Shown here one piece after another: positions 5,547 through 32,170 of a DNA stretch of 42,251 nucleotides. The position numbers were made by a program, and so were the translations under genes. Source of the DNA: Candidatus Hodarchaeota archaeon. GTDB taxonomy: Archaea; Asgardarchaeota; Heimdallarchaeia; Hodarchaeales; Hodarchaeaceae. The notes under the pieces were generated by a model. The model saw only the letters and a program-made list of their open reading frames with translations. It ran no database searches and had not been told where the DNA came from. The stretch covers positions 1 to 42,251 of the forward strand of contig JAEOTC010000055.1 in NCBI GenBank assembly GCA_016840035.1, read 5' to 3'. Within the stretch, counting starts at the first letter, position 1. Every line of letters begins with the position of its first letter.

Positions 5547-6830
5547 ATGGCACAAAAGAGCATATATGAATTTTCTGCTAAAAAACTGCTTATGACAGAA
5601 TTGCCGAAGTATTTCCCATCGTATAATTACCATGGGAAACTTGCTGTTATAACTCCCGAAACGGACTGGGATAAATTGGTTGCTGAACATCCTTGGCTCA
5701 ATACGGACAAGCTTGCTGCAAAACCAGACCAACTTTTCGGTAAGCGAGGAAAGGCCAATCTATTATTACTAGATGCCGATCTTAATGGATTGAAAGCATT
5801 CATTACTGAAAGAATGAACAAAAAGATCGAGCTCGGTGGTATTAAAGGTACTCTTACTCGCTTCCTCGTTGAACCGTTTGTACCTCATGAGAAAGAGTTC
5901 TATGTCTCAATCACTTCTGATATGGGCAATGACACTGTTCATTTCTCCTTTGAGGGCGGAATCTTTGTGGAAGAAAACTGGGACAAAGTAACCCATGTAC
6001 CAGTTCCTATAGGAACTGATATTGATTCCTTTGATCTGGCAAGCAAACTACCTGATCTTGGTGACTTAAAAGACACCCTAGTACCCTTTATTAAAGGTGT
6101 ATTAAAAGTTTATATTGATCAAGATTTTGCTTTTCTCGAAATTAATCCCTTTGCTGTAACTGCGGATAAAACCGTGGTTCCTCTCGATCTAAAAGCGAAA
6201 TTAGATGACACAGCTAGCTTTCAACATCTTGATTCATGGGGTAATCCAGACAATCCGATCCAATTCCCCCGAGCATTTGGTCAAGTTCTTTCCAAAGAGG
6301 AACAATTCATTGCCGATCTCGATGAAAAGACGGGCGCATCATTAAAATTTACAATACTAAATAGAGATGCCCGTGTATGGACCATGGTTGCTGGTGGTGG
6401 TGGTTCAGTTGTGTATACAGACACAATTGCTGATATGGGTTTTGCCAAGGACCTGGGAAACTATGGGGAATATTCTGGCAACCCTAATAGAGAACATACT
6501 GAGCTTTATGCACAAACAGTAATTGATGTACTTACAGAACGACCTGATCCTCAAGGTAGACCAAAGGTTCTTCTTATTGGTGGCGGTATTGCTAACTTTA
6601 CAGATGTTAAAGCTACCTTTTTGGGCATAGTAGCGGCCTTACGTAAATCAGCTGATAAGCTCAAAGCAGCAAATGTCAAGATTTATGTTCGAAGAGGTGG
6701 TCCTAACGAAAAAGAAGGATTAAAACTGATGGAAGATGTTGGTAAGGAGATTGGAGTACCAATCGAAGTGTACGATCGTTATACACATATGACGCGCATC
6801 GTTCCATTATCACTCAAAGGAGATAGCTAA
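5547..6830 (+). CDS. aclB: ATP-citrate lyase, ATP-grasp/citrate-binding subunit
   Basis: KPDQLFGKRGK, EINP, AKLDDTA, WTMVAGGGGSVVYTD, NYGEYSGNP, IGGGIANFTDV and VRRGGPN are diagnostic ACL motifs. Confidence 0.95.
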   Translation: MAQKSIYEFSAKKLLMTELPKYFPSYNYHGKLAVITPETDWDKLVAEHPWLNTDKLAAKPDQLFGKRGKANLLLLDADLNGLKAFITERMNKKIELGGIKGTLTRFLVEPFVPHEKEFYVSITSDMGNDTVHFSFEGGIFVEENWDKVTHVPVPIGTDIDSFDLASKLPDLGDLKDTLVPFIKGVLKVYIDQDFAFLEINPFAVTADKTVVPLDLKAKLDDTASFQHLDSWGNPDNPIQFPRAFGQVLSKEEQFIADLDEKTGASLKFTILNRDARVWTMVAGGGGSVVYTDTIADMGFAKDLGNYGEYSGNPNREHTELYAQTVIDVLTERPDPQGRPKVLLIGGGIANFTDVKATFLGIVAALRKSADKLKAANVKIYVRRGGPNEKEGLKLMEDVGKEIGVPIEVYDRYTHMTRIVPLSLKGDS

Positions 6831-6836
6831 AGGAGG
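6831..6836 (+). promoter_or_regulatory. Shine-Dalgarno site of aclA
   Basis: AGGAGG directly after the aclB stop codon, 7 nt before the aclA ATG at 6844. Confidence 0.75.
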
Positions 6837-6843
6837 ACTAGTA

Positions 6844-8685
6844 ATGACAAACGGATTATTTAATCGTAATACTAAAGCCATTATTTATGGTTTTCAAAGA
6901 AACGCCATTCAAAGAATGCTTGATTTTGATTTTGTATGTAAAAGAGATACACCCTCTGTAGCTGCAGTCATTCGACCCTCCCAAACCGGTGCTATCGGTT
7001 ACCACAAGGTTTTTTGGGGTGGTAAAGAGATTGTTATACCTATTTATCGGAAATTCGATCTTGCAGTTAAAAGACATCCTGATGCAGATGTTGTAATCAA
7101 CTTCTCATCCTTCAGAAGTGCTTATCCTACAACTATGGAAGCCCTGAAAGCAGACACTATTAAGACTGTTGCAGTTATTGCTGAAGGAATTCCCGAACGT
7201 AGAAGTCGTGAAATGAGAAAATTAGCCCAAGAGACAGGTAAAGTGATAATTGGACCAGCCACAGTTGGTGGAATCCAAGCTGGCGCTTTTAAAATTGGTA
7301 ATACAGCTGGAACTATCGAAAATGTTGTTCTTTCAAAGCTTTATCGACCTGGAAGTGTTGGTTTTGTATCCAAAAGTGGAGGTATGAGTAATGAAATGAA
7401 CTTCGCTATTGCGCAGAATTCTGATGGTGTCTATGAAGGGATAGCTATCGGTGGTGATCGATATGCAGGTTCAACATTACTTGAACATCTCCTTAGATAC
7501 GAAGCTAATCCCAAGATTAAGATGATGGTCTGTCTTGGAGAAGTTGGTGGTACTGGAGAGATCGATATTGTCAATGCCGTTAAAGATGGTCGAATCACAA
7601 AACCTTTAGTGATGTGGTGCATTGGTACTTCTGCTAAACTGCTTCCTGCAGGACTTCAATTTGGTCATGCTGGCGCAATGGCAGGTAGTGATATGGAAAC
7701 AGCCCATGCTAAGAACAAAGCCTTAAAAGATGTGGGTGTCATTGTTCCTGACTCGTACGACGACTTTGGTGACAAAATTAAGGAAACTTTTGAAAAGCTA
7801 AAAACTGAAGGTAAAATTGATCCCGTGGACGAATTTGAACCACCAAAACTCCCAATGGATTATGCTCAAGCTGCAAAGCTTGGTCTGGTTAGAAGACCAA
7901 CCAATGTGATCAGTACTATCTCTGATGAGCGAGGGGACGTGCCCATGTTTGGAGGAAGTCCTAAAGTTGGGCTTGATACCATTGTTGCTGAAAATAAATC
8001 CCTTGGTTATACTATTGGACTGCTTTGGTTTAAGAAAGAATTACCAAAATTCGCTCAAGATTATATTGAGATGGTTGTTAAGTTAACATCTGACCATGGT
8101 CCAGCAGTAAGCGGTGCTCATAATGCAATAATAACAGCTCGTGCTGGTAAAGATTTAATGTCTTCACTAGCCACTGGAATTCTCGCAATAGGTCCCCGCT
8201 TTGGTGGTGCCATTTCTGATGCAGCAAAGTATATAAAACTTGCACTGGATAAAAAGATGAATCCTCAAGAATTTGTAGACTACATGAAGAATGTAGTGGG
8301 TATTAATATTCCTGGAATTGGACATCGGATTAAATCAGTCCAGAATCCTGATGTTCGTGTTAAATTATTGAAGGAATTCGTCTTGAATAACTTTGAGAAG
8401 CATCCATTTTTGGATTACGCCCTTGAAGTAGAAAAGATCACCACTTCAAAACGAAATAATCTTATTCTTAATGTCGATGGTTGCATTGGTATCTGCTTCA
8501 TGGATCTACTAGAGAACCTAGACTTGTCTGAAGAAGAGAAAGCTGATGTGATCGCTACAGAAATGCTGAACGGATTCTTTGTTCTCGGTAGAAGCATTGG
8601 TATGATGGGTCATATCTTTGATCAAAAAAGACAAAGAGCAGCTTTGTACCGTCAACCCTGGGATGAAATTCTTTTCGCTGATTAG
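6844..8685 (+). CDS. aclA: ATP-citrate lyase, CoA-binding/phosphohistidine + citryl-CoA lyase subunit
   Basis: QRMLDFDF, IIGPATVGG, KLYRPGSV, SKSGGMSNE, phospho-His motif QFGHAGA, and citryl-CoA lyase domain DHGPAVSGAHN / IPGIGHRIKS / NLILNVDG / LYRQPWDEI. Confidence 0.96.
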   Translation: MTNGLFNRNTKAIIYGFQRNAIQRMLDFDFVCKRDTPSVAAVIRPSQTGAIGYHKVFWGGKEIVIPIYRKFDLAVKRHPDADVVINFSSFRSAYPTTMEALKADTIKTVAVIAEGIPERRSREMRKLAQETGKVIIGPATVGGIQAGAFKIGNTAGTIENVVLSKLYRPGSVGFVSKSGGMSNEMNFAIAQNSDGVYEGIAIGGDRYAGSTLLEHLLRYEANPKIKMMVCLGEVGGTGEIDIVNAVKDGRITKPLVMWCIGTSAKLLPAGLQFGHAGAMAGSDMETAHAKNKALKDVGVIVPDSYDDFGDKIKETFEKLKTEGKIDPVDEFEPPKLPMDYAQAAKLGLVRRPTNVISTISDERGDVPMFGGSPKVGLDTIVAENKSLGYTIGLLWFKKELPKFAQDYIEMVVKLTSDHGPAVSGAHNAIITARAGKDLMSSLATGILAIGPRFGGAISDAAKYIKLALDKKMNPQEFVDYMKNVVGINIPGIGHRIKSVQNPDVRVKLLKEFVLNNFEKHPFLDYALEVEKITTSKRNNLILNVDGCIGICFMDLLENLDLSEEEKADVIATEMLNGFFVLGRSIGMMGHIFDQKRQRAALYRQPWDEILFAD

Positions 8686-8687
8686 AA

Positions 8688-8711
8688 TTTCTTCCAACTT
8701 CTCTTTTTTCT
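8688..8711 (+). terminator. Pyrimidine/oligo-T archaeal terminator after aclA
   Basis: TTTCTTCCAACTTCTCTTTTTTCT immediately after the stop codon. Confidence 0.55.
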
Positions 8712-8888
8712 AAATTTGATGGTTAAACAAAGTCGGGCACATACAGGTGTATATATTCACCTAACGATAAATTCTGCAGTCGTTTCTTTCCTGCTACTTG
8801 ATCAATGACTTCTATCAGACCTGCTTTGTTGGCTACTTGAAATTATTAGCTAATCGAGTATTAATTTAGTTTTTGAAAGTTAATATAT

Positions 8889-9770
8889 TCAGGAGGCAAA
8901 AAGATCGTAAAATAATTGGATCATGGGAATCACATAACCCGTAACAAAGGCAAAAGCCATAATAAACGTGAGGGAGGCTAGTAGAAAACTTATAGCGGCA
9001 CCTGTTTGGGTTATAGCTCTGGTGAATATGAGAAAATGAATAAAAATTATAACGAATATTATCAATGTTGCAGTTGTAAGTATGTTACTAGCTTGAGAAT
9101 ATCCTCTGGAAGGTTGAAAGTAATTGATGTATAGGATCAAAGGAAGAATCACGAGATCTTTTACTATAAAAAGAGGTGCATAACTCCCCATTAATCTTAG
9201 AAAATGAAAATTACTAGTTTTTACTTGTAAGATTGAAGAGATTACATTCCCAAAGAATCCTATCGCGATTAAAATTGAACATTGAAAAATGGCACCTCCT
9301 ATATAAAGATCTGGTCGAAATGTAGCCCCTTTGGTAAATATCCAGTCAAGAAAATACGCAGATAACGCATAGGCGACACCAACAAGTACAATCAATACCA
9401 GTGCAACAAAAGAAAACGATTTACTATTCACAATACCTATTGTTGCTTCACGATTGAATTTTAAATTTGAAACTATGCGTTTTACGGTTACTTTTTCATC
9501 AGAAATTGCAAGCTCAATAGGAACGTGCTTTTCTGGTTTTTGTATTGTTGGAACGGTAATTGCTTCTTCTTGGATAATTGGTTTGATTTCTGAAACAGGA
9601 TACTGACAATAGGGACAATATTTTGGTTCGGGATCATCAATTGTATGATAGCATTGAGTACATCGAATGGGTTGAAACGTGGCTAGATTGCTTCCACAGC
9701 TGACACAAAAAAGCCAATGAGGTTTCAACTTGTACCCACAATTTTCACATAAAGTCTTAGTTTGCTCCAT
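8889..9770 (-). CDS. Double zinc-ribbon + Yip1-like five-TM membrane protein
   Basis: CENC/CVSC/CTQC/CPYC pairs followed by about 5 TM helices. ATG 9770 (MEQTK) is preferred over 9797 because a GGTGG RBS precedes it and it avoids overlap with the upstream gene. Confidence 0.7.
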   Translation of the reverse strand: MEQTKTLCENCGYKLKPHWLFCVSCGSNLATFQPIRCTQCYHTIDDPEPKYCPYCQYPVSEIKPIIQEEAITVPTIQKPEKHVPIELAISDEKVTVKRIVSNLKFNREATIGIVNSKSFSFVALVLIVLVGVAYALSAYFLDWIFTKGATFRPDLYIGGAIFQCSILIAIGFFGNVISSILQVKTSNFHFLRLMGSYAPLFIVKDLVILPLILYINYFQPSRGYSQASNILTTATLIIFVIIFIHFLIFTRAITQTGAAISFLLASLTFIMAFAFVTGYVIPMIQLFYDLFAS

Positions 9771-9789
9771 TTTTCTTCCACCGAGATAC

Positions 9790-10521
9790 TCATGCAAATC
9801 CTAATGGTAAATCAATTAAAATTTTAATAATAGAAAGAAGAAGAGTAGCTACTCCAAATATTACTGATGAGAGAATAAAAGCAATGAACACTTGTTTGTT
9901 GTAATCAGGATAACTCTTTTTTACCCTAGTGATAACCCTAGGCATGAAAAAAATGATGATGAAAAGGATGAATATTAAATATAAACCCAGATCATACAGA
10001 TCTATCATTTTAGCATAATATAAACGAAAATCCCAGCGTGACTGCCAAGCATATTCAGTCCCAATGCTTGGAAGGGGTTGAAGACAATAAAGCAAACTAT
10101 AACTTAGAAAGAGAATATCTTTTAACACGGAGATCTGTGAGACTAAAGCGACATCATGTATGATAAACGATCTTCCATTTGGTATGTTGGTTTGGAGATA
10201 TTGAAAAATTAGAAGCAAGATAAGAAAAAAAGTCATTTCGAGCACAGCAAATTCTAATCCTCTCAAGATGTTCAAAGAGAGATCATTAGGTATAAATCGT
10301 AGATTTGGATAATCACCTATTATTTCACCTGGATTATTTCTCATGGCATTAAAAGCGGCATGATACATACCACGTATTCCAGCGAAAAAACCAGTAACAG
10401 CAATTGAAATAATGAAGAAAAGAAGGGTTTTCTGGGGTTTGATTTCTTCATCAATTTCTCGATTTAATGCAGTAAAAATAAAATAATTCTTCAACGGTAC
10501 TACTTTGGTTTTTATTCCCAT
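9790..10521 (-). CDS. Hypothetical multi-pass membrane protein (possibly Yip1-like)
   Basis: 243 aa with about 5 hydrophobic helices; co-oriented with and adjacent to the zinc-ribbon membrane gene. Confidence 0.65.
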   Translation of the reverse strand: MGIKTKVVPLKNYFIFTALNREIDEEIKPQKTLLFFIISIAVTGFFAGIRGMYHAAFNAMRNNPGEIIGDYPNLRFIPNDLSLNILRGLEFAVLEMTFFLILLLIFQYLQTNIPNGRSFIIHDVALVSQISVLKDILFLSYSLLYCLQPLPSIGTEYAWQSRWDFRLYYAKMIDLYDLGLYLIFILFIIIFFMPRVITRVKKSYPDYNKQVFIAFILSSVIFGVATLLLSIIKILIDLPLGFA

Positions 10522-10734
10522 TCTTAATACCCAGATCCCATCTTTTGAAAATGCAATGAAATTTCGTAACTACTGCACTTCTGACATTCAAAAAGATTAA
10601 CATAACAATTGTTCAAGGACCTCTTCAATCTCCTCCCTTTTTCTTTTTATGATTATACCTCTAAACATTTTTAAAGAATTGAATTGTACTTACTTGTTTA
10701 TTCATGAGTGTCATAAGACGAGGAAGAATGAAAA

Positions 10735-15327: not shown

Positions 15328-16530
15328 ATGTTGACCGAAGAACAAGTTAAGAAAGCAACTGCACACTTTGAGAACTTAGTTCGAGAACAACTCGAACGAG
15401 TAGAGAGAATGAAGAAAGAACCTGATTGGACAGATTTTTCGAGTCTTGATAAAATCATCATCGGAGCCTGTAGTGGAGATGGTATTGGACCAGCTATCAC
15501 TGAAGCTGCGATTATCGTCCTTAACTTTTTACTCGACTCTGAAATTAAGTCGGGAAAAGTTGAGATTAGAAAAATTGATGGATTAACAATAGAGAATCGA
15601 GTAAAAGTAATGAAAGCTATACCTGATGATGTTCTTGCTGAATTAAAAGAGTGTCATACAATATTGAAAGGTCCAACCACTACTCCTTGGAAAGGAAACA
15701 AATATGGCTGGCCTAATATTGAAAGTGCTAATGTATCGATGCGACGTGAATTAGATCTCTTCGCAAATGTTCGTCCAGTTCGTGTTCCAGAGAAAAACAT
15801 TGATTGGATGTTTTACCGGGAAAATACTGAAGGAGCATATGTTTTGGGAAGTAAAGGAGTAGATGTATCAGAAGATCTCGCAGTTGACTTCAAAGTAATC
15901 ACAAATCAAGGTTCAGATCGGATTATTCGTGCTGCATTTGAGTATGCTAGCAAGAATAATATCAACAAAGTAACGGTAGTAACCAAGGCCAATGTTGTTA
16001 AGCGCACTGATGGTAAATTTCTAGCCATAGCTGAACAAGTAGCAAAGGATTATCCTCAAGTTGAATGGGATGATTGGTATATTGATATTATGACAGCTAA
16101 GCTTATCGATCCAGCTCGTCAGAGTTCATTCCGTGTTATTACTGCGCCAAACCTCTACGGAGATATAATAACAGATGAGGCTGCACAGATTCAAGGCGGT
16201 CTAGGTACTGCTGGAGCAGCAAATATCGGTAAGCGATATTCTATGTTTGAAGCAGTTCATGGTAGCGCTCTTAAGATGGTAGACGAGGGTCGTGAAAAAT
16301 ATGCTGACCCTACGAGTATGATTAAAGCAGCATCTATGCTCTTGAATCACATTGGCTTTACTGAGAAAGCAGCAATGTTGGATAAAGCCATTGAAGTCTG
16401 TTCTCAGTATGAAAAGAAACTAGTCATCACAGGCCGTGATACTGGGGCAACTGGTGAAGAAATGGCCAATTATATCATTGAAACTATAAAATCACCTGAT
16501 CTTGAACAAAAATGGCAAGGTTATCAATAA
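15328..16530 (+). CDS. icd: Isocitrate dehydrogenase (isocitrate/isopropylmalate dehydrogenase family)
   Basis: GDGIGP, LKGPTTTP, substrate loop ESANVSMRR (S-x-N-x-x-x-R as in IDH rather than IPMDH), FANVRP, RENTEGAY, TKANVVK, PNLYGDIITD, FEAVHGSA. GGTGG RBS. Confidence 0.85.
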   Translation: MLTEEQVKKATAHFENLVREQLERVERMKKEPDWTDFSSLDKIIIGACSGDGIGPAITEAAIIVLNFLLDSEIKSGKVEIRKIDGLTIENRVKVMKAIPDDVLAELKECHTILKGPTTTPWKGNKYGWPNIESANVSMRRELDLFANVRPVRVPEKNIDWMFYRENTEGAYVLGSKGVDVSEDLAVDFKVITNQGSDRIIRAAFEYASKNNINKVTVVTKANVVKRTDGKFLAIAEQVAKDYPQVEWDDWYIDIMTAKLIDPARQSSFRVITAPNLYGDIITDEAAQIQGGLGTAGAANIGKRYSMFEAVHGSALKMVDEGREKYADPTSMIKAASMLLNHIGFTEKAAMLDKAIEVCSQYEKKLVITGRDTGATGEEMANYIIETIKSPDLEQKWQGYQ

Positions 16531-21551: not shown

Positions 21552-24026
21552 ATGAAGTACCTAAGGATTTGTAGAATCGATAAAATTATTTTGATAATTA
21601 GTGTTTTTCAGATATTTCTATTTTGTGTACAGTTTCCACCATCATCATTCATTACAATATCTTCTAGCAACCCATCTGAACAGCCCGATAGCATAAATGC
21701 ACCTGTAGAATGGACAATTATGATATATATGGCTGCTGATAATAATTTGGAAACAGCTGGGGTTGAAGATTTAGTTGAATTGAGGGTCGCTAATATCGAT
21801 AATACCAGCATATCTGTTGTTATAGAGTTTGATGGATGGGAATCTTGTGGCCCACAACCAGAGGATAATGCAATATATGCTGGATCAACCCGTTATTATG
21901 TACCTGGTAATAACCAACCGTTACAAGTACTAAACTCATCTGAAAAGAATATGGGTGATCCTAATAATCTAAGAGACTTTATTGATTTTTCAACAACAAA
22001 TTATCCAGCAAACTATTACTGTTTAATCTTGTGGAATCATGGCCTTGCTTGGGAAACTGGTGAAACTAGTTGGCAGGATTTTCTAGCAGCTCCCTCATCT
22101 CGATCGGAGTATACAGATCAACTCAATTCGAATAATTTGGGCAGAAAGAACATTTGCTGGGATGATAGATCTTTTGGCGATTCATTGTCTGATGCTGAAC
22201 TTCGTACAGCTTTACAAGGTTATTATTTTGATATTATTGCCTTTGATGCTTGCCTTATGGGATGTATAGAAACTGCTTATGGTATTAAAGACCATGCAGC
22301 ATATATGGTCTCTTCTGAAGAATCTATTGGTTTAAGTGGATTCTATTACACAGGAATATTGGAAACCTTACAAAGTGCAATGAACCTCGTACAGGATACT
22401 TCCCCAGCAGCATTCGGGACAATTATTGCTCAGGAATCATATAACAGACAATATTCAACCGGTGAAATTGGAGAAATGTGCGAGATCGCTGTAATAAATC
22501 TAACACAGATCTCGCAGGTGATTACACAGATAGAAAATCTTGTTCCTTATGTCACTGGAATGAGTTACTATGAGCGTCAAACTCTTTGTTCAAATACAGA
22601 ATCAATTGCGGAATTTGATATGCCTGAGCAGATTGATTTAACAGCATTAGCTAATCTAATTGTTGGAATAGATGCTTCTGCTAGTACAGTGGTAAATAAT
22701 TTAATTTCTGCCATAAATAATATAGTAGTTTGGGAGAATCACATTGTAGAATATTGGTCTTCTTCTACTGGTTTAACAATTTTTTTTCCGTGGAGAGAAG
22801 GCTTATCAGTATCAAATTACGTACAAGTTACCCGATTTGGGGCTGAGACAACATGGCCACAGGTAGTAAGCTCGATTAGTAGTTCTGTTGTACCTTTCGA
22901 TCAAATTGACCTCAGTGATCTATCTCCTACTAAACCAACAGCATCGGGATATTTATATGAGGGAGATTCATATTTTTATTGGGTTTGGTTATACCGAAAT
23001 GAACAGGTCTCTTTTAGGTTAACTGCAGACGGGGGAACAGATTTTGATTTATACTGTTACGATATCGACCTTGAACTCGTTGCAGAGTCAATTGAAACAA
23101 CCTATCCAGAACTTGTCTCCATAGGAAGCAATGAAGGGACTTGGGCTATTCTAGAAGTGTATTCTTATGCTGGTGCTGGATCTTACGATTTAACCAGTAC
23201 GTTTACAAGTTCAGCTGCAGAACTAGATGTTTTAGGGTGCATAGGGATGTTTCCTTTATATTCTGCAGATGGAATTAATGAAATGAGGGCGGTATTGTTT
23301 TTCGATTGTCCCGCTCAAACAGTTACATTCACACTTTCCGTATTAGGTGGGTCAATTCCCTTTGAATTGCAATGGGATCAAACCTTTATCCGTGGATATC
23401 AGAAAGCGATAATTTCCATCCCCTGTGATTACCTTTATCACTTCATGTCTGGTGAAGACACATCCTATCCTTATTCAAAAAGTTACTGGGACTGCTTTGG
23501 ATACCTAAGTGTCTCAGCTAGTAATGGAGGGTCATTTACCTATACGGATCCAATTCATTTAGCTTACCTAGTAAAACTAGAGGATTTAGACCCAAATTTA
23601 GATCAATTGGTGGATCCTATGGAATCTTATCCTTTGATTTTAGTTGATCCAATTGGAGGGGATCCAAGAATCGAAACAACAACAACCGAACCTCCTGATA
23701 TATCTCCTACTTCACATGGAAATCCTAATTCGTTTGATCCTAATTTCCTCAATGACCTTATTCCCGTCTTTTATGGCGTTGGGGGATTAGTAACTATAGG
23801 ATTAGTAGTGTGGAGAAAATTATCCCTCCGAAAAGCAGCAAGTAAAAACCTAGGCACTTCTCAGACCAGATTTCAGTATCAACCGCCTCGAGCTACACCT
23901 CAACCAAGAGTTAAAGTACCTCAAGCACCATTTATCTTCTGTGGAAATTGTGGGAATATGGCATTACGAACAGGGGATAATGTATATACCTGTACTAAAT
24001 GTGGAAAACAATATCGTTTCGTTTAA
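21552..24026 (+). CDS. Membrane-anchored clostripain-family (C11) cysteine peptidase with PPC-like domain and C-terminal zinc ribbon
   Basis: Signal/TM segment, WTIMIYMAADNNLE, NMGDP, catalytic His in LWNHG, catalytic Cys in FDACLMG, SSEE, PPC-like DFDLY, P/T linker, TM helix, CGNC...CTKC. Confidence 0.9.
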   Translation: MKYLRICRIDKIILIISVFQIFLFCVQFPPSSFITISSSNPSEQPDSINAPVEWTIMIYMAADNNLETAGVEDLVELRVANIDNTSISVVIEFDGWESCGPQPEDNAIYAGSTRYYVPGNNQPLQVLNSSEKNMGDPNNLRDFIDFSTTNYPANYYCLILWNHGLAWETGETSWQDFLAAPSSRSEYTDQLNSNNLGRKNICWDDRSFGDSLSDAELRTALQGYYFDIIAFDACLMGCIETAYGIKDHAAYMVSSEESIGLSGFYYTGILETLQSAMNLVQDTSPAAFGTIIAQESYNRQYSTGEIGEMCEIAVINLTQISQVITQIENLVPYVTGMSYYERQTLCSNTESIAEFDMPEQIDLTALANLIVGIDASASTVVNNLISAINNIVVWENHIVEYWSSSTGLTIFFPWREGLSVSNYVQVTRFGAETTWPQVVSSISSSVVPFDQIDLSDLSPTKPTASGYLYEGDSYFYWVWLYRNEQVSFRLTADGGTDFDLYCYDIDLELVAESIETTYPELVSIGSNEGTWAILEVYSYAGAGSYDLTSTFTSSAAELDVLGCIGMFPLYSADGINEMRAVLFFDCPAQTVTFTLSVLGGSIPFELQWDQTFIRGYQKAIISIPCDYLYHFMSGEDTSYPYSKSYWDCFGYLSVSASNGGSFTYTDPIHLAYLVKLEDLDPNLDQLVDPMESYPLILVDPIGGDPRIETTTTEPPDISPTSHGNPNSFDPNFLNDLIPVFYGVGGLVTIGLVVWRKLSLRKAASKNLGTSQTRFQYQPPRATPQPRVKVPQAPFIFCGNCGNMALRTGDNVYTCTKCGKQYRFV

Positions 24027-24499: not shown

Positions 24500-26431
24500 T
24501 TACGAGGCACTAACAGTATAACTTAGTTTTCCACCAGCAAGGAGTATTTCTCGCTCTCGTTCAGAGAAATCATAAGAAGTCTGAACGTCAAAATTCTGTG
24601 TTCGATTATGAACAATGATAGGTTGATTCTCCTTTAAGGCAGTTCTTGCTCCTTTAATTTCCAGAACATCCCCATCATTTATTCGATCATAATCAGCATT
24701 ATCCTTGAACGTTAAAGGCAAGATTCCAAAGTTCACAAGATTATCTCGATGGATTCGAGCAAAAGATTTGGTAAGTACTGTTTTTATACCAAGATACATT
24801 GGAGCTAAAGCTGCATGTTCGCGACTAGAACCCTGTCCGTAATTTTCACCACCAATGATAATACCTCCGCCTTCTTCTTTGCTTTTGAGTGCACGTTCAG
24901 GGAAAGTAGCATCTACTTGTTCAAACACATGCTTACTGATTTCTGGGAGATTAGATCGAAGAGGAAGGATTTTCGAACCTGCAGGCATGATATGATCTGT
25001 CGTTACGTCATCTTCTGCTTTGATTAACACTTTGAATTCAAAATTATCTTGGAGGGGTTGAAATTCAGGTAAAGGAGCAATATTTGGCCCACGGATAATT
25101 GCCACCTCTCCTGGTGTTTCAGAGGGAGGTAGAATCATCGAATCGTCAATTTCAATCTCTTTTGGAATTTCGATCTTAGGATACTCACCTAATTTTTTAG
25201 GATCGGTAAATTCCCCAAAAATTGCTGCAGCAACAGCTACTTCAGGACTAACCAAGTATGCGTTAGCACTCTTTGTCCCAGTACGGCCAAAGAAATTACG
25301 ATTAAATGTTCGAACAGCCACTGCATCAGTCTTTGGTGCAAAACCCATTCCAATACACGGTCCACAAGCACTCTCCAAAATTCGTGCTCCTGCGGTGATC
25401 GCATCAGCTAGTGTCCCATTTTTAGCAAGCTCCATCAGGACCTGTCGTGATCCAGGTGAAATTCCTAAAACCGTGTCAGAATGAATCTTTCGTCCTTTTA
25501 ACAACGCAGATACAGTTAACATATCTTTGAGAGAACTATTCGTGCAGGATCCGATAGCAACTTGATCCACTTTCATTCCATAGAGTTCGGATAAAGGAAC
25601 GACCTTCCCTGGTGAATGGGGTTTAGCTACAAGTGGTTCTAATTCGGAAAGATTAATTTCAATGATCTCATCATAATCTCCATCTTCTCCAGCTGGAAGT
25701 TCAACCCAATCTTTTTCACGATTTTGCCATTTCAAGAAGTCTTTAGTTATTTCATCAGATGGAAATATTGAGGTAGTTGCCCCTGTTTCTGCTCCCATAT
25801 TAGTAATAGTAGCTCTTTCTGGAACAGAGAGAGTTTTTATTCCTGGACCATAATATTCCAGGATCTTACCCACTCCACCTTTGACATTTATCCGGCGGAG
25901 TACCTCAAGGATTACATCTTTTGCTGCAACATAGTCAGGTAGTGAACCTGTAAGTTTCACTCCAACAATTTTTGGAGTTTTCAGGTAGAACGGCCCCCCA
26001 CCCATTGCAACAGCAACATCTAATCCACCTGCACCGATTGCAATTGATCCCATTCCTCCAGCTGTTGGAGTATGAGAGTCAGACCCGATTAATGTCTTAG
26101 AGGGGGTAGCAAATCGTTCCAGAAAGACTTGGTGACATATTCCATTTCCTGGTCTTGAAAACTGTATACCATACTTCGCAGCAACCGATTGTAGATATCG
26201 ATGGTCATCAGGATTTTTGAAATCAGATTGAGTTGTATTATGATCTACGATAGAAACGGATAATTCCGTTTTAACCTTATCAAGTCCCATAGCCTCGAAT
26301 TGAAGATAGGCCATGGTGCCCGTTGCATCTTGTGTCAGGGTATGATCAATACGAATACCGATCTCTTCTCCAACTTCATACTTCCCTTCCACAAGATGAT
26401 CTTGTAGAATTTTTTTAGCAATGGAAACCAT
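24500..26431 (-). CDS. acnA: Aconitate hydratase (single-chain, about 640 aa, Aquifex/clostridial type)
   Basis: TQDATGTMA, DHN, GICHQ, GSDSHT, [4Fe-4S] ligands IGSCTNS and SACGPCIGMG, NRNF, TTDHI, NYGQGSSREHAA. Confidence 0.92.
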   Translation of the reverse strand: MVSIAKKILQDHLVEGKYEVGEEIGIRIDHTLTQDATGTMAYLQFEAMGLDKVKTELSVSIVDHNTTQSDFKNPDDHRYLQSVAAKYGIQFSRPGNGICHQVFLERFATPSKTLIGSDSHTPTAGGMGSIAIGAGGLDVAVAMGGGPFYLKTPKIVGVKLTGSLPDYVAAKDVILEVLRRINVKGGVGKILEYYGPGIKTLSVPERATITNMGAETGATTSIFPSDEITKDFLKWQNREKDWVELPAGEDGDYDEIIEINLSELEPLVAKPHSPGKVVPLSELYGMKVDQVAIGSCTNSSLKDMLTVSALLKGRKIHSDTVLGISPGSRQVLMELAKNGTLADAITAGARILESACGPCIGMGFAPKTDAVAVRTFNRNFFGRTGTKSANAYLVSPEVAVAAAIFGEFTDPKKLGEYPKIEIPKEIEIDDSMILPPSETPGEVAIIRGPNIAPLPEFQPLQDNFEFKVLIKAEDDVTTDHIMPAGSKILPLRSNLPEISKHVFEQVDATFPERALKSKEEGGGIIIGGENYGQGSSREHAALAPMYLGIKTVLTKSFARIHRDNLVNFGILPLTFKDNADYDRINDGDVLEIKGARTALKENQPIIVHNRTQNFDVQTSYDFSEREREILLAGGKLSYTVSAS

Positions 26432-26591: not shown

Positions 26592-26616
26592 CCGAAGGAT
26601 TGGATATTGCCTCTCT

Positions 26617-29007
26617 TCAGGCTGTAGCCTTTTCAGAAACATGTTTTGCCTTATGATTCTTTTTAGCGATTCCAGCCATCCTAGTAACAACATCAGCGAA
26701 CTTCTTTCCTTCAGCAGCGGACATCCATTCAATGATAAAGCGTTCGTCATCAATTCCTTGCTTTTTCATCCAGCGTCGTATCTTTCGTTCACGTTTTATT
26801 GCAAAATCGTTACCAGAAATATAGTGACAATCCTGAGGATGGCATCCTGTCAACATAACTGAACCTGCTCCAAGCTCAAACGCGCGCTTTATGAAATCAA
26901 CGTCAATACGACCAGAGCACATGACTCGAACAACTCTAGAATTCGTAGGATACTGGATACGACTCGTACCTGCTAGATCAGCACCTCCGTACGAACACCA
27001 ATTGCATGCGAAGATCATAACCTTTTCATCTGCATTATCACGTAGCGCGATATCAACTTGTCGTAATATCATCGCATCTGTGAAGTTCGTCATCATGATG
27101 GCATCTTGAGGACAATCTGCCGCACAAGTACCACATCCTTTACATAGAACGGGAATTACATGTGCTGGGGTCTTTTTCTTTTTATCTACAGTAATAGCGT
27201 TGTAGGGACATCGAGTAGCACAAATTCCACATGAATTACATAACTCTGCATTGACCACAGCGTATAAGGGCTCTACAGAAAATTCCCCTTTGGTTAAAAC
27301 TCTAGTAACTCGTCCAGCAGCTGCACTTGCTTGAGTAACTGCCTCACGAATATCTTTAGGTGATTCAGCTCCTCCAGCAATGAAGATTCCATCAGTTGGT
27401 GTGTCAACTGGTCGTAATTTCGGATGTGATTCAATATAATAATCATGAGTGTCTTTTGCTACAGGGAAGGGAATATTAGAACTTGGCCCCTCCGCACCAA
27501 TGGACAAGACCACCATTTCGAATTCACGATCTACTAGCTTTCCAATACGTGTATCTTCAACAGAGACAATTAAATTATTGTTCGGACCAACCTGTTCAAC
27601 TTGAGAAGGTCGTCCACGAACGTATTTAACACCCTCACGTCGTGAGCGTGTATAAAGTTCTTCAAATCCTTTTCCAAATGCACGAATGTCTATAAAGAAC
27701 ACAGAAACCTCTACATCAGGCCAATGTTCTTTTATCAGAAGTGTATCTTTGATACTCTCCATACAGCAGTAATTAGAACAGTATGGATTATACCGTTGAT
27801 CCCGTGAACCGACACACTGAATGAATGCTACACTCTTTGGTCGCTTCAAATCACTGGGACGAACGAGATCACCTGAAGTCGGACCTGCGGCGTTTATTAA
27901 TCTTTCAAATTCAAAAGTAGTGACTACATTTGGATATCGGCCCCAGCCATATTCGGGAATCTTGGAAGCATCGAACATTTCAAAGCCAGTAGAGATAATG
28001 ATGGTACCTACTTTATATTTATAGGTTTTAACTCTATCTTCATAATTAATGGCTTCTTTCTCACATGTACCCTTGCATTTCCCACAAGCTAGCACATCTA
28101 ATCCAAGACAATTGTCTGTGTCAATAATATAACTAGCTGGAACAGCTTGTGGATAAGGAATGTATATAGCTTTTCTCCAACCCAAATTACCAGAATACTC
28201 ATCTATTACATTAACGGGACAAATGTCTACACAATCGTTACAGGCTGTACACAAGTCTTCCTCTACATATCGGGGTTGTTTAGTGACTTCTACTTCAAAG
28301 TTCCCTACGTATCCAGAGATTTTTGTGACTTCAGCATTAGCAATTAGTGAGATATTATCGTGATTTCCAACATCAGCCATTTTAGGACCAAGAATACAGA
28401 TACTACAGTCCATTGTAGGGAATGTTTTGTCAATCAGTGCCATATTTCCCCCGATAGTGGGACTTTTTTCAACCATAACTACCTTATAATCATCTGCTAG
28501 ATCTAATCCAGCCTGAATCCCAGCAACGCCTCCACCAACAATTAAAACTCGTTTTTCAACTGGAACTACTGTAGCTTCTGCGGGTTCAAGCATTGCGGCT
28601 TTTGCAATCGCCATTTCAGTTAGCTCCATGGCTTTAACCGTAGCTTCTTCCTTCTCATGAAGATGTACCCATGAACATTGTTCTCGAATATTAGCAACTT
28701 CTACGACTTCTGGATTCATCCCACTTCTTTTCATCAATTTTTTCCATGTTGGTCCATGGAGACGGGGAGAACATGCAGAGACGACAATTTTTTCGATTCC
28801 TTGCTCCTTGATAGCAGTTTCAATCTCAACTTGACCCGGGTCAGAACAGGTGTAAGTATTTACTTGCACAAGTTCAACATTAGGCAAATCTTTGACTTCT
28901 TCTGCGATTTTGTCAATGTCCACTGATCCAGCTATGTTCTTTCCGCATTTGCAAAGGAATACTCCTACCTTTACATCTTGCTCAACATTATCTACGCTTT
29001 CTGTCAT
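26617..29007 (-). CDS. hdrA: Heterodisulfide reductase subunit A fused to MvhD (FAD, multiple [4Fe-4S], [2Fe-2S])
   Basis: HdrA motifs: VGVFLCKCG, ACSPRLH, NIREQCSWVH, GGGVAG, DKTFPTMDCSICIL, FEFERL, QCVGSRD..YCSNYCCMESIK, HPKLRPV, and ferredoxin motifs. MvhD motifs: CNWCSYGGADLAG, RVMCSGR, GCHPQDCHY. Confidence 0.95.
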   Translation of the reverse strand: MTESVDNVEQDVKVGVFLCKCGKNIAGSVDIDKIAEEVKDLPNVELVQVNTYTCSDPGQVEIETAIKEQGIEKIVVSACSPRLHGPTWKKLMKRSGMNPEVVEVANIREQCSWVHLHEKEEATVKAMELTEMAIAKAAMLEPAEATVVPVEKRVLIVGGGVAGIQAGLDLADDYKVVMVEKSPTIGGNMALIDKTFPTMDCSICILGPKMADVGNHDNISLIANAEVTKISGYVGNFEVEVTKQPRYVEEDLCTACNDCVDICPVNVIDEYSGNLGWRKAIYIPYPQAVPASYIIDTDNCLGLDVLACGKCKGTCEKEAINYEDRVKTYKYKVGTIIISTGFEMFDASKIPEYGWGRYPNVVTTFEFERLINAAGPTSGDLVRPSDLKRPKSVAFIQCVGSRDQRYNPYCSNYCCMESIKDTLLIKEHWPDVEVSVFFIDIRAFGKGFEELYTRSRREGVKYVRGRPSQVEQVGPNNNLIVSVEDTRIGKLVDREFEMVVLSIGAEGPSSNIPFPVAKDTHDYYIESHPKLRPVDTPTDGIFIAGGAESPKDIREAVTQASAAAGRVTRVLTKGEFSVEPLYAVVNAELCNSCGICATRCPYNAITVDKKKKTPAHVIPVLCKGCGTCAADCPQDAIMMTNFTDAMILRQVDIALRDNADEKVMIFACNWCSYGGADLAGTSRIQYPTNSRVVRVMCSGRIDVDFIKRAFELGAGSVMLTGCHPQDCHYISGNDFAIKRERKIRRWMKKQGIDDERFIIEWMSAAEGKKFADVVTRMAGIAKKNHKAKHVSEKATA

Positions 29008-29009
29008 CG

Positions 29010-29879
29010 TTACTTTCTCCTACTTTGGGCAGTCTCTCTAAGTCGCTTGATTTTCTGTGTGAATCCTTCCCGTGGATTATTTACAAACTCCCCACATACA
29101 ATCCTCCGTTTTTCGTGAGAATATTCTGCTTCATGAGGAGGACAGTCTTTATCAATCACAACTTGCTCTCGAAGCCATTCTAACATCTTAACAGCATCAC
29201 CTAATTTATTTTTCCGTCCATATTGAGTGAAACAGGGAGCTAAAATTTCGATGAAACTGAAACCGGGATTGTCCATGGCTTTAAAGATACTTTCTCTTAA
29301 ACGGAGAGTATCATATCCAGGCCAACGGGCTACAAAAGAAGCTCCTGCAGCAGCAGCTAATGAAACTAAGTTAAATGGAGGTTCAATATTTCCATATGGA
29401 GAGGTTGATGTGAAGTCTCCAATAGAGGTTGTCGGGGCTAATTGTCCACCAGTCATTCCGTAAATACCATTGTTATTACACAGGACATTGATCTCAATAT
29501 TTCGTCGACATGCATGTACAAAGTGGTTTCCACCAATTGCAAAGAGATCTCCGTCTCCTGATAGTACGAAGACTTCAAGATCAGGATTTGCCAATTTTAA
29601 TCCTGTGGCAAATGGAATGGCCCGGCCATGAGTTGCATGGAAGGCAGGTGCTTTGAAACATCCACTAGTTCTACCTGTACATCCGATTCCTGACACTATT
29701 GCATAATCCTTTGGTGTTAATCCTCTTTCGACTAAGCAAGTAGTAATCGAGGTAATAGCTGTTCCAATTAGACACCCTGCACAGAAAATAAAGCGATTAA
29801 GATTTAATCGGCCATGTAAAGGATGTTCCTCTGGGTAATCAAGTTCTGGAGTACCCCATTCTTCTTCTGATGATGTCAT
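29010..29879 (-). CDS. korB: 2-oxoacid (probably 2-oxoglutarate):ferredoxin oxidoreductase beta subunit
   Basis: FCAGC, SGIGCTGR, HATHGRA, TPP motif GDGD...NNGIYGMTGGQ, and PC. ATGA overlap with korA. Confidence 0.9.
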   Translation of the reverse strand: MTSSEEEWGTPELDYPEEHPLHGRLNLNRFIFCAGCLIGTAITSITTCLVERGLTPKDYAIVSGIGCTGRTSGCFKAPAFHATHGRAIPFATGLKLANPDLEVFVLSGDGDLFAIGGNHFVHACRRNIEINVLCNNNGIYGMTGGQLAPTTSIGDFTSTSPYGNIEPPFNLVSLAAAAGASFVARWPGYDTLRLRESIFKAMDNPGFSFIEILAPCFTQYGRKNKLGDAVKMLEWLREQVVIDKDCPPHEAEYSHEKRRIVCGEFVNNPREGFTQKIKRLRETAQSRRK

Positions 29880-31039
29880 CTGTTAACCTCCTTCATTAGA
29901 TTTTCATAGATGAAACTCGGAGCAAACGGTATCGTAGTCGGCACCAGTAATCCTGAAACTGAAAAACCGAGATGTCTAAAGCGTTCAACTTCTCGGATGA
30001 GTTGACCATAATTCATCTCCGTAACAAGAACTTTCTTAACTCCCAACTTCCCTAGCCTCTCCATAAGTTCATCAGGGAATGGCCATAATGTTTTAAGTCT
30101 AACTAAGCCGACTTTGTGACCCTTTTTCCGAGCTTGTTCAACTGCTTCTGGATTACCACGTGCATTGATACCATATGAGAGAATGACTGTTTCCGCATCC
30201 TCAACGTATAATTCTTCCCAATCATTAATATCAGGCCGTGCTCTTCTTATTTTGTCACACAGGCGTTTTACTAGGGTAATTTCCGTTTCAGGGGTCATAT
30301 CGGGACTCCCAGTGATATCATGAGTTAATCCAGTGACATAGAAGTTGTAATCAGTTCCTGCTGTTGCCATTCCGGGAATTAAGTCATCGTCAATAATTTC
30401 AAAGGGTTGGTACTTATCAGGAGGGACTTGTGGTGGTTTTCTATTGATTACTTCAAAATTTGAATGATAAGAAACTGGTTCCATCATCTGTCCAACTATA
30501 CCATCCGAAGCAACTATAACGGGTGTTCGATACTTTTCGGCTAAATTAAATGCCCTAACTGAAAAATCATAACATTCCTGAACAGTAGAGGGAGCGAGTA
30601 CAATTGTTTCATAATCTCCATGGGAAAGATAACGAGTTTGCATCACATCAGATTGTGAGGCTTTTGTAGGTTGACCAGTACTTGGACCACCCCGCATTAC
30701 GGTAACTATGACTAATGGAGCTTCTAACATAAATCCTAATCCAACAGTTTCTGCCATTAAAGATAATCCAGGACCAGAAGTTGCGGTCATGGCTTTTGCT
30801 CCCGCATAAGAAGCACCGACGACAGCCACAATTGAGGCTAACTCATCTTCCATCTGGACAAATGAACCTCCTACTTGAGGTAATCGTCTTGACATATAAT
30901 GGGCTATTTCAGAAGAAGGGGTAATTGGATAACCTGCAAAAAAACGACAACCAACGGCAATAGCTCCTTCCGCAGATGCATAATTTCCTGTGGTTAATAT
31001 TAATTTTGATTTAGAAGATTTCTTACTTGCACTAGCCAT
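29876..31039 (-). CDS. korA: 2-oxoacid (probably 2-oxoglutarate):ferredoxin oxidoreductase alpha subunit
   Basis: FFAGYPITPSSE, QMEDE, TATSGPGLSLM, RGGPSTGQPT, SQSD, TGLTHD, EMNYGQ. Confidence 0.92.
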   Translation of the reverse strand: MASASKKSSKSKLILTTGNYASAEGAIAVGCRFFAGYPITPSSEIAHYMSRRLPQVGGSFVQMEDELASIVAVVGASYAGAKAMTATSGPGLSLMAETVGLGFMLEAPLVIVTVMRGGPSTGQPTKASQSDVMQTRYLSHGDYETIVLAPSTVQECYDFSVRAFNLAEKYRTPVIVASDGIVGQMMEPVSYHSNFEVINRKPPQVPPDKYQPFEIIDDDLIPGMATAGTDYNFYVTGLTHDITGSPDMTPETEITLVKRLCDKIRRARPDINDWEELYVEDAETVILSYGINARGNPEAVEQARKKGHKVGLVRLKTLWPFPDELMERLGKLGVKKVLVTEMNYGQLIREVERFRHLGFSVSGLLVPTTIPFAPSFIYENLMKEVNR

Positions 31040-31321
31040 TTAATCATCCTCCTGTGGTACGTCCCTTTCGATTACCATAATAGATACTGTGGGACAAATC
31101 CGTTCGCATTGCTTGCACCCCGTACATTTATCTAGTGCTATTACCTTAACATAATGGAGCATACGACTATTGAAATTGTCCATGTCAATCTCTAAGACAT
31201 CGCATGGACAAAATTCGACACATAATTCACACCCATCACAAATTTCTGAATAGACCTTAATCTTATACTCTTTATCCGCTCGTGGTGGATCGAGCATGGG
31301 CGTTCTTTTGGAATTCAACAT
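31040..31321 (-). CDS. korD: 2x[4Fe-4S] ferredoxin, oxidoreductase delta subunit
   Basis: CDGCELCVEFCP and CTGCKQCERICP; its stop codon abuts the korA ATG. Confidence 0.9.
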   Translation of the reverse strand: MLNSKRTPMLDPPRADKEYKIKVYSEICDGCELCVEFCPCDVLEIDMDNFNSRMLHYVKVIALDKCTGCKQCERICPTVSIMVIERDVPQEDD

Positions 31322-31606
31322 TTACTTTCCTCTTTGTGGTATTTGAATCGTCAATTCTAATCTACTTGGCGAATTATAAATCCTCTATTTTCATCTTAAT
31401 TGTAATCAAGATTTGATGATGAGGTTTTTAAATCTGTTTCTCGATCAAAGACATATGATAGATTATTCAGATATGAGGAATCTACACTATAATTATGCAT
31501 ATTTACATTATAACTACTTACTAATCTCCAAAATGTTTAAATTTCTCAACAAAGTCCTCTATCTGAAAGCGTTAAACATGCTTTGTAACAAAGGAATGAC
31601 TGATTT

Positions 31607-32170
31607 ATGAAAGTAAAATTCCGTTTTTCGGGTCGAGGAGGGCAGGGTATCAAATTTCTAGGTAGCGCTCTTGTCCGTGTCGCGATGGCCGCTAACCTAA
31701 ATGCAACTCTTACTGTCGATTATACCCCATCTGTCCGTGGTGGACCTATTTTTAGTGATGTTGTGATAAGTTCAGATCCAATAGCTTACCCTTATTGTGA
31801 AGCTGACGCTGATTACTTCATTGCTCTTGATTCAAAGGGTTTCGAACGTGCTGCGGAATGCATATGTGAAAATACAACCTCTTATATTGATGCAGACTCA
31901 ATTGATGAAACCGCAGAAAAAATTATCACAAAGGGGAAAATGCACAGAGTTCCCATTACACGTCGAGCCGATGAACAAAAGGTTACAGGAGCAGTTAATG
32001 TTTTATCGTTAGGTTTTCTATCAGAACATCTTAAAACTACTGAAAAACCAAATTTTACGGAAGATCAATACATTCAAGTATTCAATAGTATGAGAAATCC
32101 GGAAAATAATATCAAGACTTTCCAATTCGGAAAAGATCTCTACTCAGAGACTATTAGCAGTCCTTCTTAA
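31607..32170 (+). CDS. korC: 2-oxoacid:ferredoxin oxidoreductase gamma subunit
   Basis: RFSGRGGQGI, YTPSVRGG, DVVISSDPIAYP, NVLSLG. Divergent from korD. Confidence 0.88.
   Translation: MKVKFRFSGRGGQGIKFLGSALVRVAMAANLNATLTVDYTPSVRGGPIFSDVVISSDPIAYPYCEADADYFIALDSKGFERAAECICENTTSYIDADSIDETAEKIITKGKMHRVPITRRADEQKVTGAVNVLSLGFLSEHLKTTEKPNFTEDQYIQVFNSMRNPENNIKTFQFGKDLYSETISSPS

Follow-up and report, generated by a model that had tools for sequence, protein, structure and literature searches.

The oxidative tricarboxylic acid (TCA) cycle of the Desulfobacter type forms citrate with ATP-citrate lyase (ACL) and uses a ferredoxin-dependent 2-oxoglutarate oxidoreductase (KOR). Among archaea, ACL has been reported in various Asgardarchaeota (Santana-Molina et al. 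2025, PMC11976288). The combination of ACL, isocitrate dehydrogenase (IDH) and KOR in Lokiarchaeia was read as a reductive TCA (rTCA) cycle (Bulzu et al., 10.1101/385732), and in ANME-1/2c, ACL, aconitase and IDH were interpreted as a partial oxidative branch in which ACL forms ATP (Chadwick et al. 2022, PMC9012536). The Hodarchaeales have been described as aerobic chemoheterotrophs (10.1101/2024.07.04.601786), and our literature searches pairing Hodarchaeales with ATP citrate lyase found nothing. Here, we analysed a contig of a Candidatus Hodarchaeota archaeon of the genus Hodarchaeum (JAEOTC010000055.1, assembly GCA_016840035.1) that carries aclBA, an IDH gene (idh), an aconitase gene (acn) and the kor genes. 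The contig was taken whole, at 42,251 nt, and is referred to as the window; its parent assembly is 4.3 Mb in size and 87% complete. We favour, with moderate confidence, the reading that this locus is an amphibolic, reversible limb of a complete cycle and not a dedicated CO2-fixation island.

Compared with the described systems, the locus encodes the same four proteins as the acn-aclBA-idh clusters of Asgard and other archaea, at 58-78% identity, and relatives of the window genome keep the same gene order. The directional ambiguity of the Asgard and ANME clusters is shared as well. Unlike those clusters, the window copy is pulled apart, the cluster of the genus lies beside sdhCDAB and a kor-hdrA2 operon, and the host has an aerobic respiratory chain and a complete cycle in what is the sole ACL-bearing genus of the Heimdallarchaeia. 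With the Desulfobacter-type cycle it has in common ACL and KOR within a complete cycle, and no free citrate synthase was found in the window's genome or in two genomes of the same genus (G062 and G050). In contrast to that cycle, Hodarchaeum has an oxygen reductase, and some of its relatives do have a free citrate synthase.

Genes were called from the open reading frame (ORF) listing and from Pfam and NCBIfam scans of the window proteins. On the plus strand, aclB (ACL beta subunit, 427 aa, 5547-6830; Pfam Citrate_bind and Citrate_synth_N) and aclA (alpha subunit, 613 aa, 6844-8685; CoA_binding, Ligase_CoA and a citrate-synthase-like C-terminal domain) are spaced by 13 nt, and idh (also icd; ACL-linked IDH, 400 aa, 15328-16530; Pfam Iso_dh) lies further along. 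The minus strand carries acn (aconitate hydratase of the TIGR01342/NF005558 type by NCBIfam, 643 aa, 24500-26431) and, reading from the distal end, korD (2x[4Fe-4S] delta subunit, 93 aa, 31040-31321; Fer4 dicluster families), korA (alpha subunit, 387 aa, 29876-31039; POR_N and PFOR_II), korB (TPP-binding beta subunit, 289 aa, 29010-29879; TPP_enzyme_C) and, as the final gene of the korDAB operon, an hdrA2-type gene encoding HdrA fused to MvhD (796 aa, 26617-29007; NF040770). The korD-korA junction is 0 nt, korA and korB overlap by 4 nt, and the korB-hdrA2 gap is 2 nt. The gamma subunit gene korC (187 aa, 31607-32170, plus strand; Pfam POR, 74 bits) is divergent from korDAB. An earlier note on this DNA, made from the letters, had named these four sets as consecutive steps of the reductive TCA branch; all are present and intact at these positions. 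The note had also placed them in separate transcription units, which holds in part. Between hdrA2 and acn lie 185 nt that contain oligo-T tracts and, upstream of acn, an A/T-rich box, and for this reason acn is probably a unit of its own, separate from kor-hdrA2; korDAB, in contrast, shares its operon with the HdrA-MvhD gene, and korC is divergent. The statement that citrate synthase, sucCD, sdh/frd, fumarase and mdh are missing from the window was confirmed by Pfam scans of its ORFs of at least 100 aa, and the Pfam and NCBIfam scans found no hdrB or hdrC in the window either.

The synteny of the locus was then compared within the genus. AclA occurs in 19 of the 21 other Hodarchaeum genomes, with idh directly after aclA in 12, and orthologs within the genus are 79-96% identical. 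Both the closed genome G057 (CP070695.1) and G062 have the order sdhB-sdhA-sdhD-sdhC, a larA-like gene, aclB-aclA-idh, a convergent acn, one or two unrelated genes and hdrA2-korB-korA-korD, and in G057 this supercluster from sdh through kor spans about 22 kb. In G065 the order is the same, but kor-hdrA2 lies about 13 kb past acn, behind other genes. The spread-out order of the window is shared by its closest relative, G052 (91-96% identity), and sdhCDAB and larA lie outside the window, on separate contigs of its genome. Because the relatives are compact, G052 shares the stretched order and sdhCDAB and larA lie elsewhere in the same genome, the compact supercluster is ancestral in the genus, and the window and G052 represent a derived, loosened state. 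The proposal of an eroding island thus gained support from relatives that hold a compact cluster, with unrelated genes pulling apart the copies in the window and G052, and the synteny comparison suggested in the earlier note shows the genes linked in relatives. By rough arithmetic, the chance of finding three further loci within about 27 kb of the first in a 4.3-Mb genome is of the order of 1e-6; given this value and the tighter linkage in same-genus genomes, the co-location of the four enzyme sets is not due to chance. The larA-like gene, a LarA-family (lactate-racemase-like, nickel-pincer) member, is kept between sdhCDAB and aclBA in same-genus genomes (G057, L051:2610-4073; L064, L065, L068 and L069) and lies on contig C154 of the window genome; its substrate might be a cycle-related hydroxyacid.

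In the window, the four gene sets are kept apart by 5-8 kb of unrelated genes. These encode a zinc-ribbon protein, an alpha/beta hydrolase, a PLP enzyme, an MFS transporter, methyltransferases, a DUF134 protein, a DUF5320 protein and a clostripain-like peptidase. The last of these, an 824-aa protein of the clostripain family (Peptidase_C11; 21552-24026), is one unrelated insertion between idh and acn. A search for repeats or recombination sites around the inter-module insertions returned only short chance-level repeats, and no shared site flanks the gene sets.

For ACL, AclB matched Citrate_bind (PF16114) with 261 bits and the ACL ATP-grasp family Citrate_synth_N (PF24948) with 229 bits (cut-off 83). 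A related-locus scan with one genome per species returned 80 named loci, and in 78 of them an AclB ortholog (66-92% identity) adjoins aclA. The nearest solved chains to AclA, matched end to end, were Methanosaeta (Methanothrix) concilii ACLY-B (6HXI_B, 774 bits) and human ACLY (737 bits), while the Chlorobium-type AclA was a far weaker match (426 bits). His275 (GHAG motif) and Asp545 (NVDG motif) are invariant in a 12-sequence alignment (A2); from what is known of ACLY, we take them to be the catalytic His and the Asp of the citryl-CoA lyase part. The window AclA therefore aligns over its whole length with the heteromeric ACLY-A/B of M. concilii (6HXI/6ZNW) and with human ACLY and keeps their catalytic His and Asp, although, in contrast to both, the Hodarchaeum ACL is known from its sequence. 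We assign aclBA as a predicted two-subunit ATP-citrate lyase of the archaeal/eukaryote-like type. Numerous public AclA entries are named 'citrate/2-methylcitrate synthase'. Two further cases within the genus stand out. G065 has an additional aclA-idh pair at the end of a contig (C19:448-2934), which is divergent, with identities of 74% and 67%; the G056 AclA (C1:751789-753585), in an open frame of 782 aa, is only 59% identical. Either may stem from a second acquisition or from contamination.

The window IDH scored 220 bits with Pfam Iso_dh, and its nearest solved structures are the NAD-dependent IDHs 6lky and 6ltf. It carries a Ser-x-Asn motif ('ESANVSMRR') where the paralogs on contigs C148 and C193 read 'RSPIVRLR' and 'ANIVLGLR', and the motif is kept in all 14 aligned ACL-linked IDHs. 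This pair presumably makes the isocitrate gamma-carboxylate contact (Ser113/Asn115 of the E. coli enzyme), as opposed to the residues of isopropylmalate and homoisocitrate dehydrogenases. The protein fell under every NCBIfam cut-off: the best IDH models gave 245 bits (cut-off 509) and 225 bits (510), and LEU3_arch gave 245 bits (410). It is 64-74% identical to the aclA-adjacent IDHs of Lokiarchaeia, Thermoplasmata, Bathyarchaeia and Chloroflexota, and the aligned members consistently adjoin aclA. The ACL-linked IDHs (the window gene and those of loci L066-L140) form a very conserved subfamily that has no NCBIfam model of its own. Identity across phyla is 64-94%, and the members have in common an N-terminal helical stretch of some 40 extra residues and the sequence KWQSYQ at the C-terminal end. 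At the cofactor site they have Arg/Lys-Met; where the NADP-IDH of E. coli has Lys-Tyr, the window IDH has Lys-Met. Because the nearest solved enzymes are NAD-IDHs, the Ser-x-Asn motif is unique among the paralogs and the subfamily is conserved and aclA-linked, these features point to isocitrate as the substrate.

The aconitase passed two NCBIfam models over its full length (NF005558, 968.8 bits against a cut-off of 612; TIGR01342, 958.8 bits against 719), and its nearest solved chain, again over the full length, was mitochondrial aconitase. The name AcnA that the earlier note had given to this 643-aa NF005558-type protein is therefore wrong; a separate 904-aa AcnA is encoded on contig C51. The possibility raised at that time, that the pair might be specific for homoisocitrate or isopropylmalate, found no support, as the dehydrogenase bears the Ser-x-Asn signature and the aconitase lies above the aconitate hydratase cut-off.

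All four Kor subunits (alpha, beta, gamma and delta) are encoded in the window. KorA passed the generic 2-oxoacid family NF006412 (491 bits, cut-off 411); its best specific family was the 2-oxoglutarate synthase alpha subunit NF007206, at 371 bits and under the cut-off of 579. Similarly, the best NCBIfam match of KorB was the beta subunit of 2-oxoglutarate ferredoxin oxidoreductase, NF007207, at 235 bits and under the cut-off of 364. The solved relatives of KorA are 1yd7, 8ys5 (a 2-oxoglutarate synthase) and 6n2n. The genome's other 2-oxoacid:ferredoxin oxidoreductases (OFORs) resemble POR/VOR enzymes in three cases, IOR in one and two-subunit OAFO enzymes in three. Judged by these family matches, KorDABC appears to be the genome's best KOR candidate, not the sole possibility, and its specificity for 2-oxoglutarate is a putative assignment. 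In the HdrA2 protein, which scored 1078 bits with NF040770 (cut-off 1100), residues 11-659 align to all of HdrA 5ODC_A (724 bits), and MvhD chains align to residues 660-778; it is a complete HdrA to which MvhD is fused. Such fusions were already known from Asgard archaea (PMC11237513). The genome's hdrC and hdrB lie on contig C114 beside another hdrA paralog.

A close KorA ortholog (66-94% identity) was found in the genus, in two genomes of the same order and in one family of Lokiarchaeia. HdrA2 follows korB directly on the same contig in 11 of the 15 same-genus genomes and 35 of the 39 Lokiarchaeia-family genomes that carry this KorA; the remaining ones have contig breaks or hdrA2 on other contigs. 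In the Lokiarchaeia family f20, korC stands first in korCDAB-hdrA2 operons, and the window korC shares 60-62% identity with it. Trees of KorA and HdrA2 agree on the topology (same-order genomes, (Hodarchaeum, Lokiarchaeia family)) with full support, which implies that the kor-hdrA2 operon was exchanged between classes. Two genomes from distant Asgard lineages, G006 (Heimdallarchaeia; L152:6906-14724) and G108 (L153:594-8219), have co-directional korD-korA-korB-korC-hdrA-mvhD-mvhG-mvhA genes without hdrBC, and their hydrogenase subunits were confirmed by Pfam. The linkage of kor with hdrA is conserved across Asgard archaea, and our literature searches for a kor-hdrA operon found no paper describing it. 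In another genome of the Lokiarchaeia family f20, G154 (L155:92-9068), korC-korD-korA-korB-hdrA2 is followed by thiolase-like, OB-fold (ChsH2_C) and methylmalonyl-CoA mutase genes. Since these downstream genes would consume succinyl-CoA, an oxidative direction is hinted at, and the arrangement suggests that 2-oxoglutarate oxidation may feed a succinyl-CoA to methylmalonyl-CoA route in G154. Downstream ORFs in G167 and G168 resemble those of the G154 operon in size.

Beyond the genus, acn-aclB-aclA-idh is co-directional in Thermoplasmata, Bathyarchaeia, Chloroflexota and Methanomicrobia, acn-aclBA occurs in Myxococcota and Thorarchaeota, and aclBA-idh in Lokiarchaeia. On the Thermoplasmatales contig L124, hdrA-korB-korA also adjoins acn-aclBA. 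Among 400 Asgard genomes, 122 have AclA; they belong to the genus Hodarchaeum, two families titled Promethearchaeia/Lokiarchaeota, one Thorarchaeota family and one small family. The other six Heimdallarchaeia families, with 62 genomes and the two same-order genomes among them, yielded no AclA, and the ACL-linked IDH occurs in 16 of the 21 genus genomes as against 0 of these 62. Within the Heimdallarchaeia, ACL and its partner IDH are thus limited to Hodarchaeum. In quick IQ-TREE trees (LG+G4), the Asgard AclA sequences grouped together (support 100); within this group, Hodarchaeum (100) paired with Lokiarchaeia as its sister (94), the Thor-type sequences were basal, and Myxococcota fell outside. 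The IDH tree gave the same Hodarchaeum-Lokiarchaeia pairing, and in the Acn tree Hodarchaeum groups with Thor-type sequences. These placements are roughly congruent and indicate a common Asgard origin of aclA, idh and acn.

One gain is more parsimonious than six or more losses, and the ACL/IDH/acn module was most likely gained laterally by the Hodarchaeum ancestor from other Asgard archaea. The earlier suggestion of a horizontally acquired pathway is borne out to this extent for aclBA-idh(-acn), which has the same gene order in several phyla, is confined to one genus in the Heimdallarchaeia and falls within Asgard ACL-cluster sequences in the AclA, IDH and Acn trees. Some records in the scan have titles in conflict with their genes: DATKTW010000007.1 (L101), titled 'Nanopelagicaceae bacterium', carries a Lokiarchaeia-type acl-idh cluster, and among several JBHL* records (L068, L070, L075, L092, L095 and L116), some titled Hermod-, Thor-, Odin- or Hodarchaeota are placed elsewhere by the gene trees. 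Mis-binning or mislabelling is the apparent cause.

The rest of the cycle was sought on the other contigs. One cluster on C210 holds fumA-fumB-sucC-sucD, and sdhCDAB lies on C278; a second sdhAB is on C54, and a third flavoprotein is NadB. The sole Ldh_1-family gene (C126; L014:1063-2031) is scored by NCBIfam as L-lactate dehydrogenase, yet its protein has Arg at the position of LDH Gln102 ('KNRSPGETR'). On account of this replacement the lactate dehydrogenase assignment was set aside, and the protein is a probable malate dehydrogenase that automatic annotation would misname. No Ldh_2-type malate dehydrogenase was found in the 87%-complete genome. Glutamate dehydrogenase (GDH) is encoded on C289, a haem-copper oxidase (COX1) on C69 and an mvhG-mvhA-hdrA(mvhD)-hdrC-hdrB operon on C114. 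We also considered citrate cleavage of the citryl-CoA synthetase/citryl-CoA lyase (CCS/CCL) type: a citryl-CoA-lyase-like gene (259 aa) does exist on C196, but tblastn with AclA gave a single SucCD pair, and this candidate was rejected. There was no match to CdhC, the acetyl-CoA synthase that marks the Wood-Ljungdahl pathway, in the genome at this completeness. Nor was there one to pyruvate carboxylase/OadA (PF02436, PYC_OADA) or archaeal phosphoenolpyruvate carboxylase (PEPC; PF14010, PEPcase_2), where bacterial-type PEPC and phosphoenolpyruvate carboxykinase were not part of the search. The inventory that the earlier note proposed therefore places sucCD, fum, sdh, por-type genes, a malate dehydrogenase candidate and a microcompartment citrate synthase on other contigs, with CdhC not found.

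This citrate synthase, the only strong one in the genome, is a 618-aa fusion with a PduL-type phosphotransacylase (CS-PTAC) on contig C184. Its operon (L016:132-6170, minus strand) combines CS-PTAC with BMC-H and EutN shell proteins, an aldehyde dehydrogenase and a Nuo51-like flavoprotein, and matches the archaeal microcompartment with citrate synthase from which citrate has been proposed to exit (10.1101/2025.11.08.687404). Among relatives, G057, G065 and G061 carry a free 384-aa citrate synthase, whereas none was found in the window's genome, G062 or G050. Moreover, G062 (96% complete), G050 and G065 have ACL and no match to the microcompartment-type citrate synthase. An open frame of about 720 aa that matches citrate synthase weakly over its full length (about 117-119 bits) is present in G057 (C1:4060144-4061148), G065 (C6:280662-281666) and G062 (C9:105800-106804), and not in the window's genome.

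Together, these data are best explained if the window is a loosened copy of the supercluster ancestral in Hodarchaeum, put together from two building blocks, the ACL/IDH/aconitase module and the kor-hdrA2 operon. The encoded segment would reversibly connect acetyl-CoA and oxaloacetate with citrate, isocitrate, 2-oxoglutarate and succinyl-CoA, and sucCD, fumAB, sdhCDAB, the LDH-like malate dehydrogenase and the citrate synthase of the microcompartment operon would complete the cycle from other contigs. In a facultatively aerobic heterotroph, such a segment may serve amphibolic carbon flow, with ACL working at the citrate node and KOR handing low-potential electrons to HdrA2 rather than to free ferredoxin only. 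Flux would be mainly oxidative or biosynthetic, ACL being able to form citrate and yield ATP, and could reverse under anoxia. We lean towards the oxidative or amphibolic direction because of the respiratory chain and the membrane-anchored complex II beside the cluster in relatives, because a free citrate synthase was not found in the window's genome, G062 and G050, and because the ANME module was read as an oxidative branch and the Hodarchaeales were described as aerobic chemoheterotrophs with a complete cycle.

Several points weigh against the amphibolic reading and the history proposed for it. Each of the four enzymes (ACL, NAD(P)-IDH, aconitase and KOR) works reversibly, and the sequence fits either flux direction. 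The relatives with a free 384-aa citrate synthase need no ACL to make citrate, which renders a cleaving role of ACL equally plausible there. The KOR identity is drawn from family matches that lie under their cut-offs, and the three two-subunit OFORs could use 2-oxoglutarate too. A physical Kor-HdrA2 complex is proposed from genetic linkage, and the absences of CdhC, pyruvate carboxylase and PEPC are soft in a genome that is 87% complete. As for the lateral gain, the AclA clade of Hodarchaeum is sister to Lokiarchaeia and not nested inside them, and ACL could instead have descended vertically from an Asgard ancestor and been lost in all Heimdallarchaeia but this genus. The earlier note had offered three directional alternatives: an autotrophic rTCA arm, a route from glutamate through citrate to acetyl-CoA, and ACL running towards citrate as in Desulfobacter. 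The sequence does not separate them, but the first is least favoured in view of the haem-copper oxidase, the missing PYC/OadA and archaeal PEPC matches and the published aerobic chemoheterotroph reconstructions.

The alternative that survives best is a citrate-cleaving role of ACL, which we regard as rather unlikely, with roughly one chance in five of being correct. ACL would then provide acetyl-CoA and oxaloacetate in the cytosol, from citrate that comes either from glutamate through GDH, 2-oxoglutarate and reductive IDH or from the microcompartment citrate synthase. In the latter case, the system would parallel the citrate shuttle of eukaryotes. GDH is present, the only strong citrate synthase is the CS-PTAC of the BMC/EutN operon with its proposed export of citrate, ACL is kept in relatives that have a free citrate synthase, and the enzyme is of the archaeal/eukaryote-like type. 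But ACL is not tied to the compartment, the three genomes with ACL and without a CS-PTAC gene having led us to reject a strict microcompartment shuttle as the principal explanation, and the module is common in lineages with no reported microcompartment. In addition, citrate synthase and ACL would form an ATP-wasting loop if they were not separated, and reductive carboxylation is hypothetical here.

A full autotrophic rTCA cycle, in which HdrA2 would feed KOR with low-potential electrons from H2 by flavin-based bifurcation, seems improbable to us. A candidate gene exists for each step (ACL, aconitase, IDH, KOR, SucCD, Sdh/Frd, FumAB, malate dehydrogenase and three POR/VOR-type OFORs), the C114 operon and the kor-hdrA-mvhDGA operons of other Asgard archaea would suit the electron supply, and such a cycle was proposed for Lokiarchaeia. 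The identical gene set, however, serves an oxidative cycle, as in the ANME reading of ACL, acn and idh, and PYC/OadA-type carboxylase and archaeal PEPC were not found. The haem-copper oxidase and the membrane-anchored SdhCD point to respiration, in line with the description of the order as aerobic chemoheterotrophs, and the G154 kor-hdrA2 operon continues into methylmalonyl-CoA mutase. That the genes are accidental neighbours, or the contig a binning or assembly chimera, is scarcely credible: the 5-8 kb of unrelated genes between the sets and the lack of a shared repeat or recombination site would fit, but synteny already contradicts it through tight linkage in a closed genome and many relatives, orthologs 79-96% identical in the genus and recurrence of the module across phyla.

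Returning to the amphibolic limb, the kor-hdrA2 operon may add a redox component to it. As in MvhAGD-HdrABC (5ODC), a complete HdrA occurs together with MvhD in the window HdrA2, and a bifurcating HdrA wired to a CO2-reducing enzyme is known from the Fdh-Hdr-Fmd supercomplex of Methanospirillum hungatei (7BKB). The likeness to both lies in an operon that joins HdrA2 to an enzyme handling CO2 at low potential; in G006 and G108 the mvhDGA genes belong to it too. The operon differs from them in having no hdrBC and in its partner, which is KOR and not formylmethanofuran dehydrogenase, and the association is known here from genes alone. We tentatively propose, as a possibility short of an even chance, that KorDABC and HdrA-MvhD form one complex that would couple the 2-oxoglutarate/succinyl-CoA plus CO2 step to flavin-based bifurcation or confurcation and, via MvhD, to a [NiFe] hydrogenase, needing neither free ferredoxin nor HdrBC. 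It would then be an undescribed Asgard-wide redox module, clustered with ACL in Hodarchaeum, and the direction of the limb could follow H2.

ACL clusters in Asgard archaea are already published (PMC11976288, 10.1101/385732). The present analysis adds the restriction of ACL and IDH to one genus within the Heimdallarchaeia, the ancestral supercluster with complex II and the breadth of the kor-hdrA(-mvh) linkage, of which the last could be new biology. The module was probably gained from other Asgard archaea and then built into a cycle supercluster beside complex II and KOR. Published trees place eukaryotic ACL with other archaea (PMC11976288), and the genus restriction and probable gain set limits to the view that eukaryotes received the enzyme from the host lineage. 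CO2 fixation is not shown by the gene set alone, and claims of an rTCA cycle in Asgard archaea should not rest on it. The kor-hdrA(-mvh) operon, in turn, is a testable candidate for how Asgard archaea may handle low-potential electrons at the 2-oxoglutarate step.

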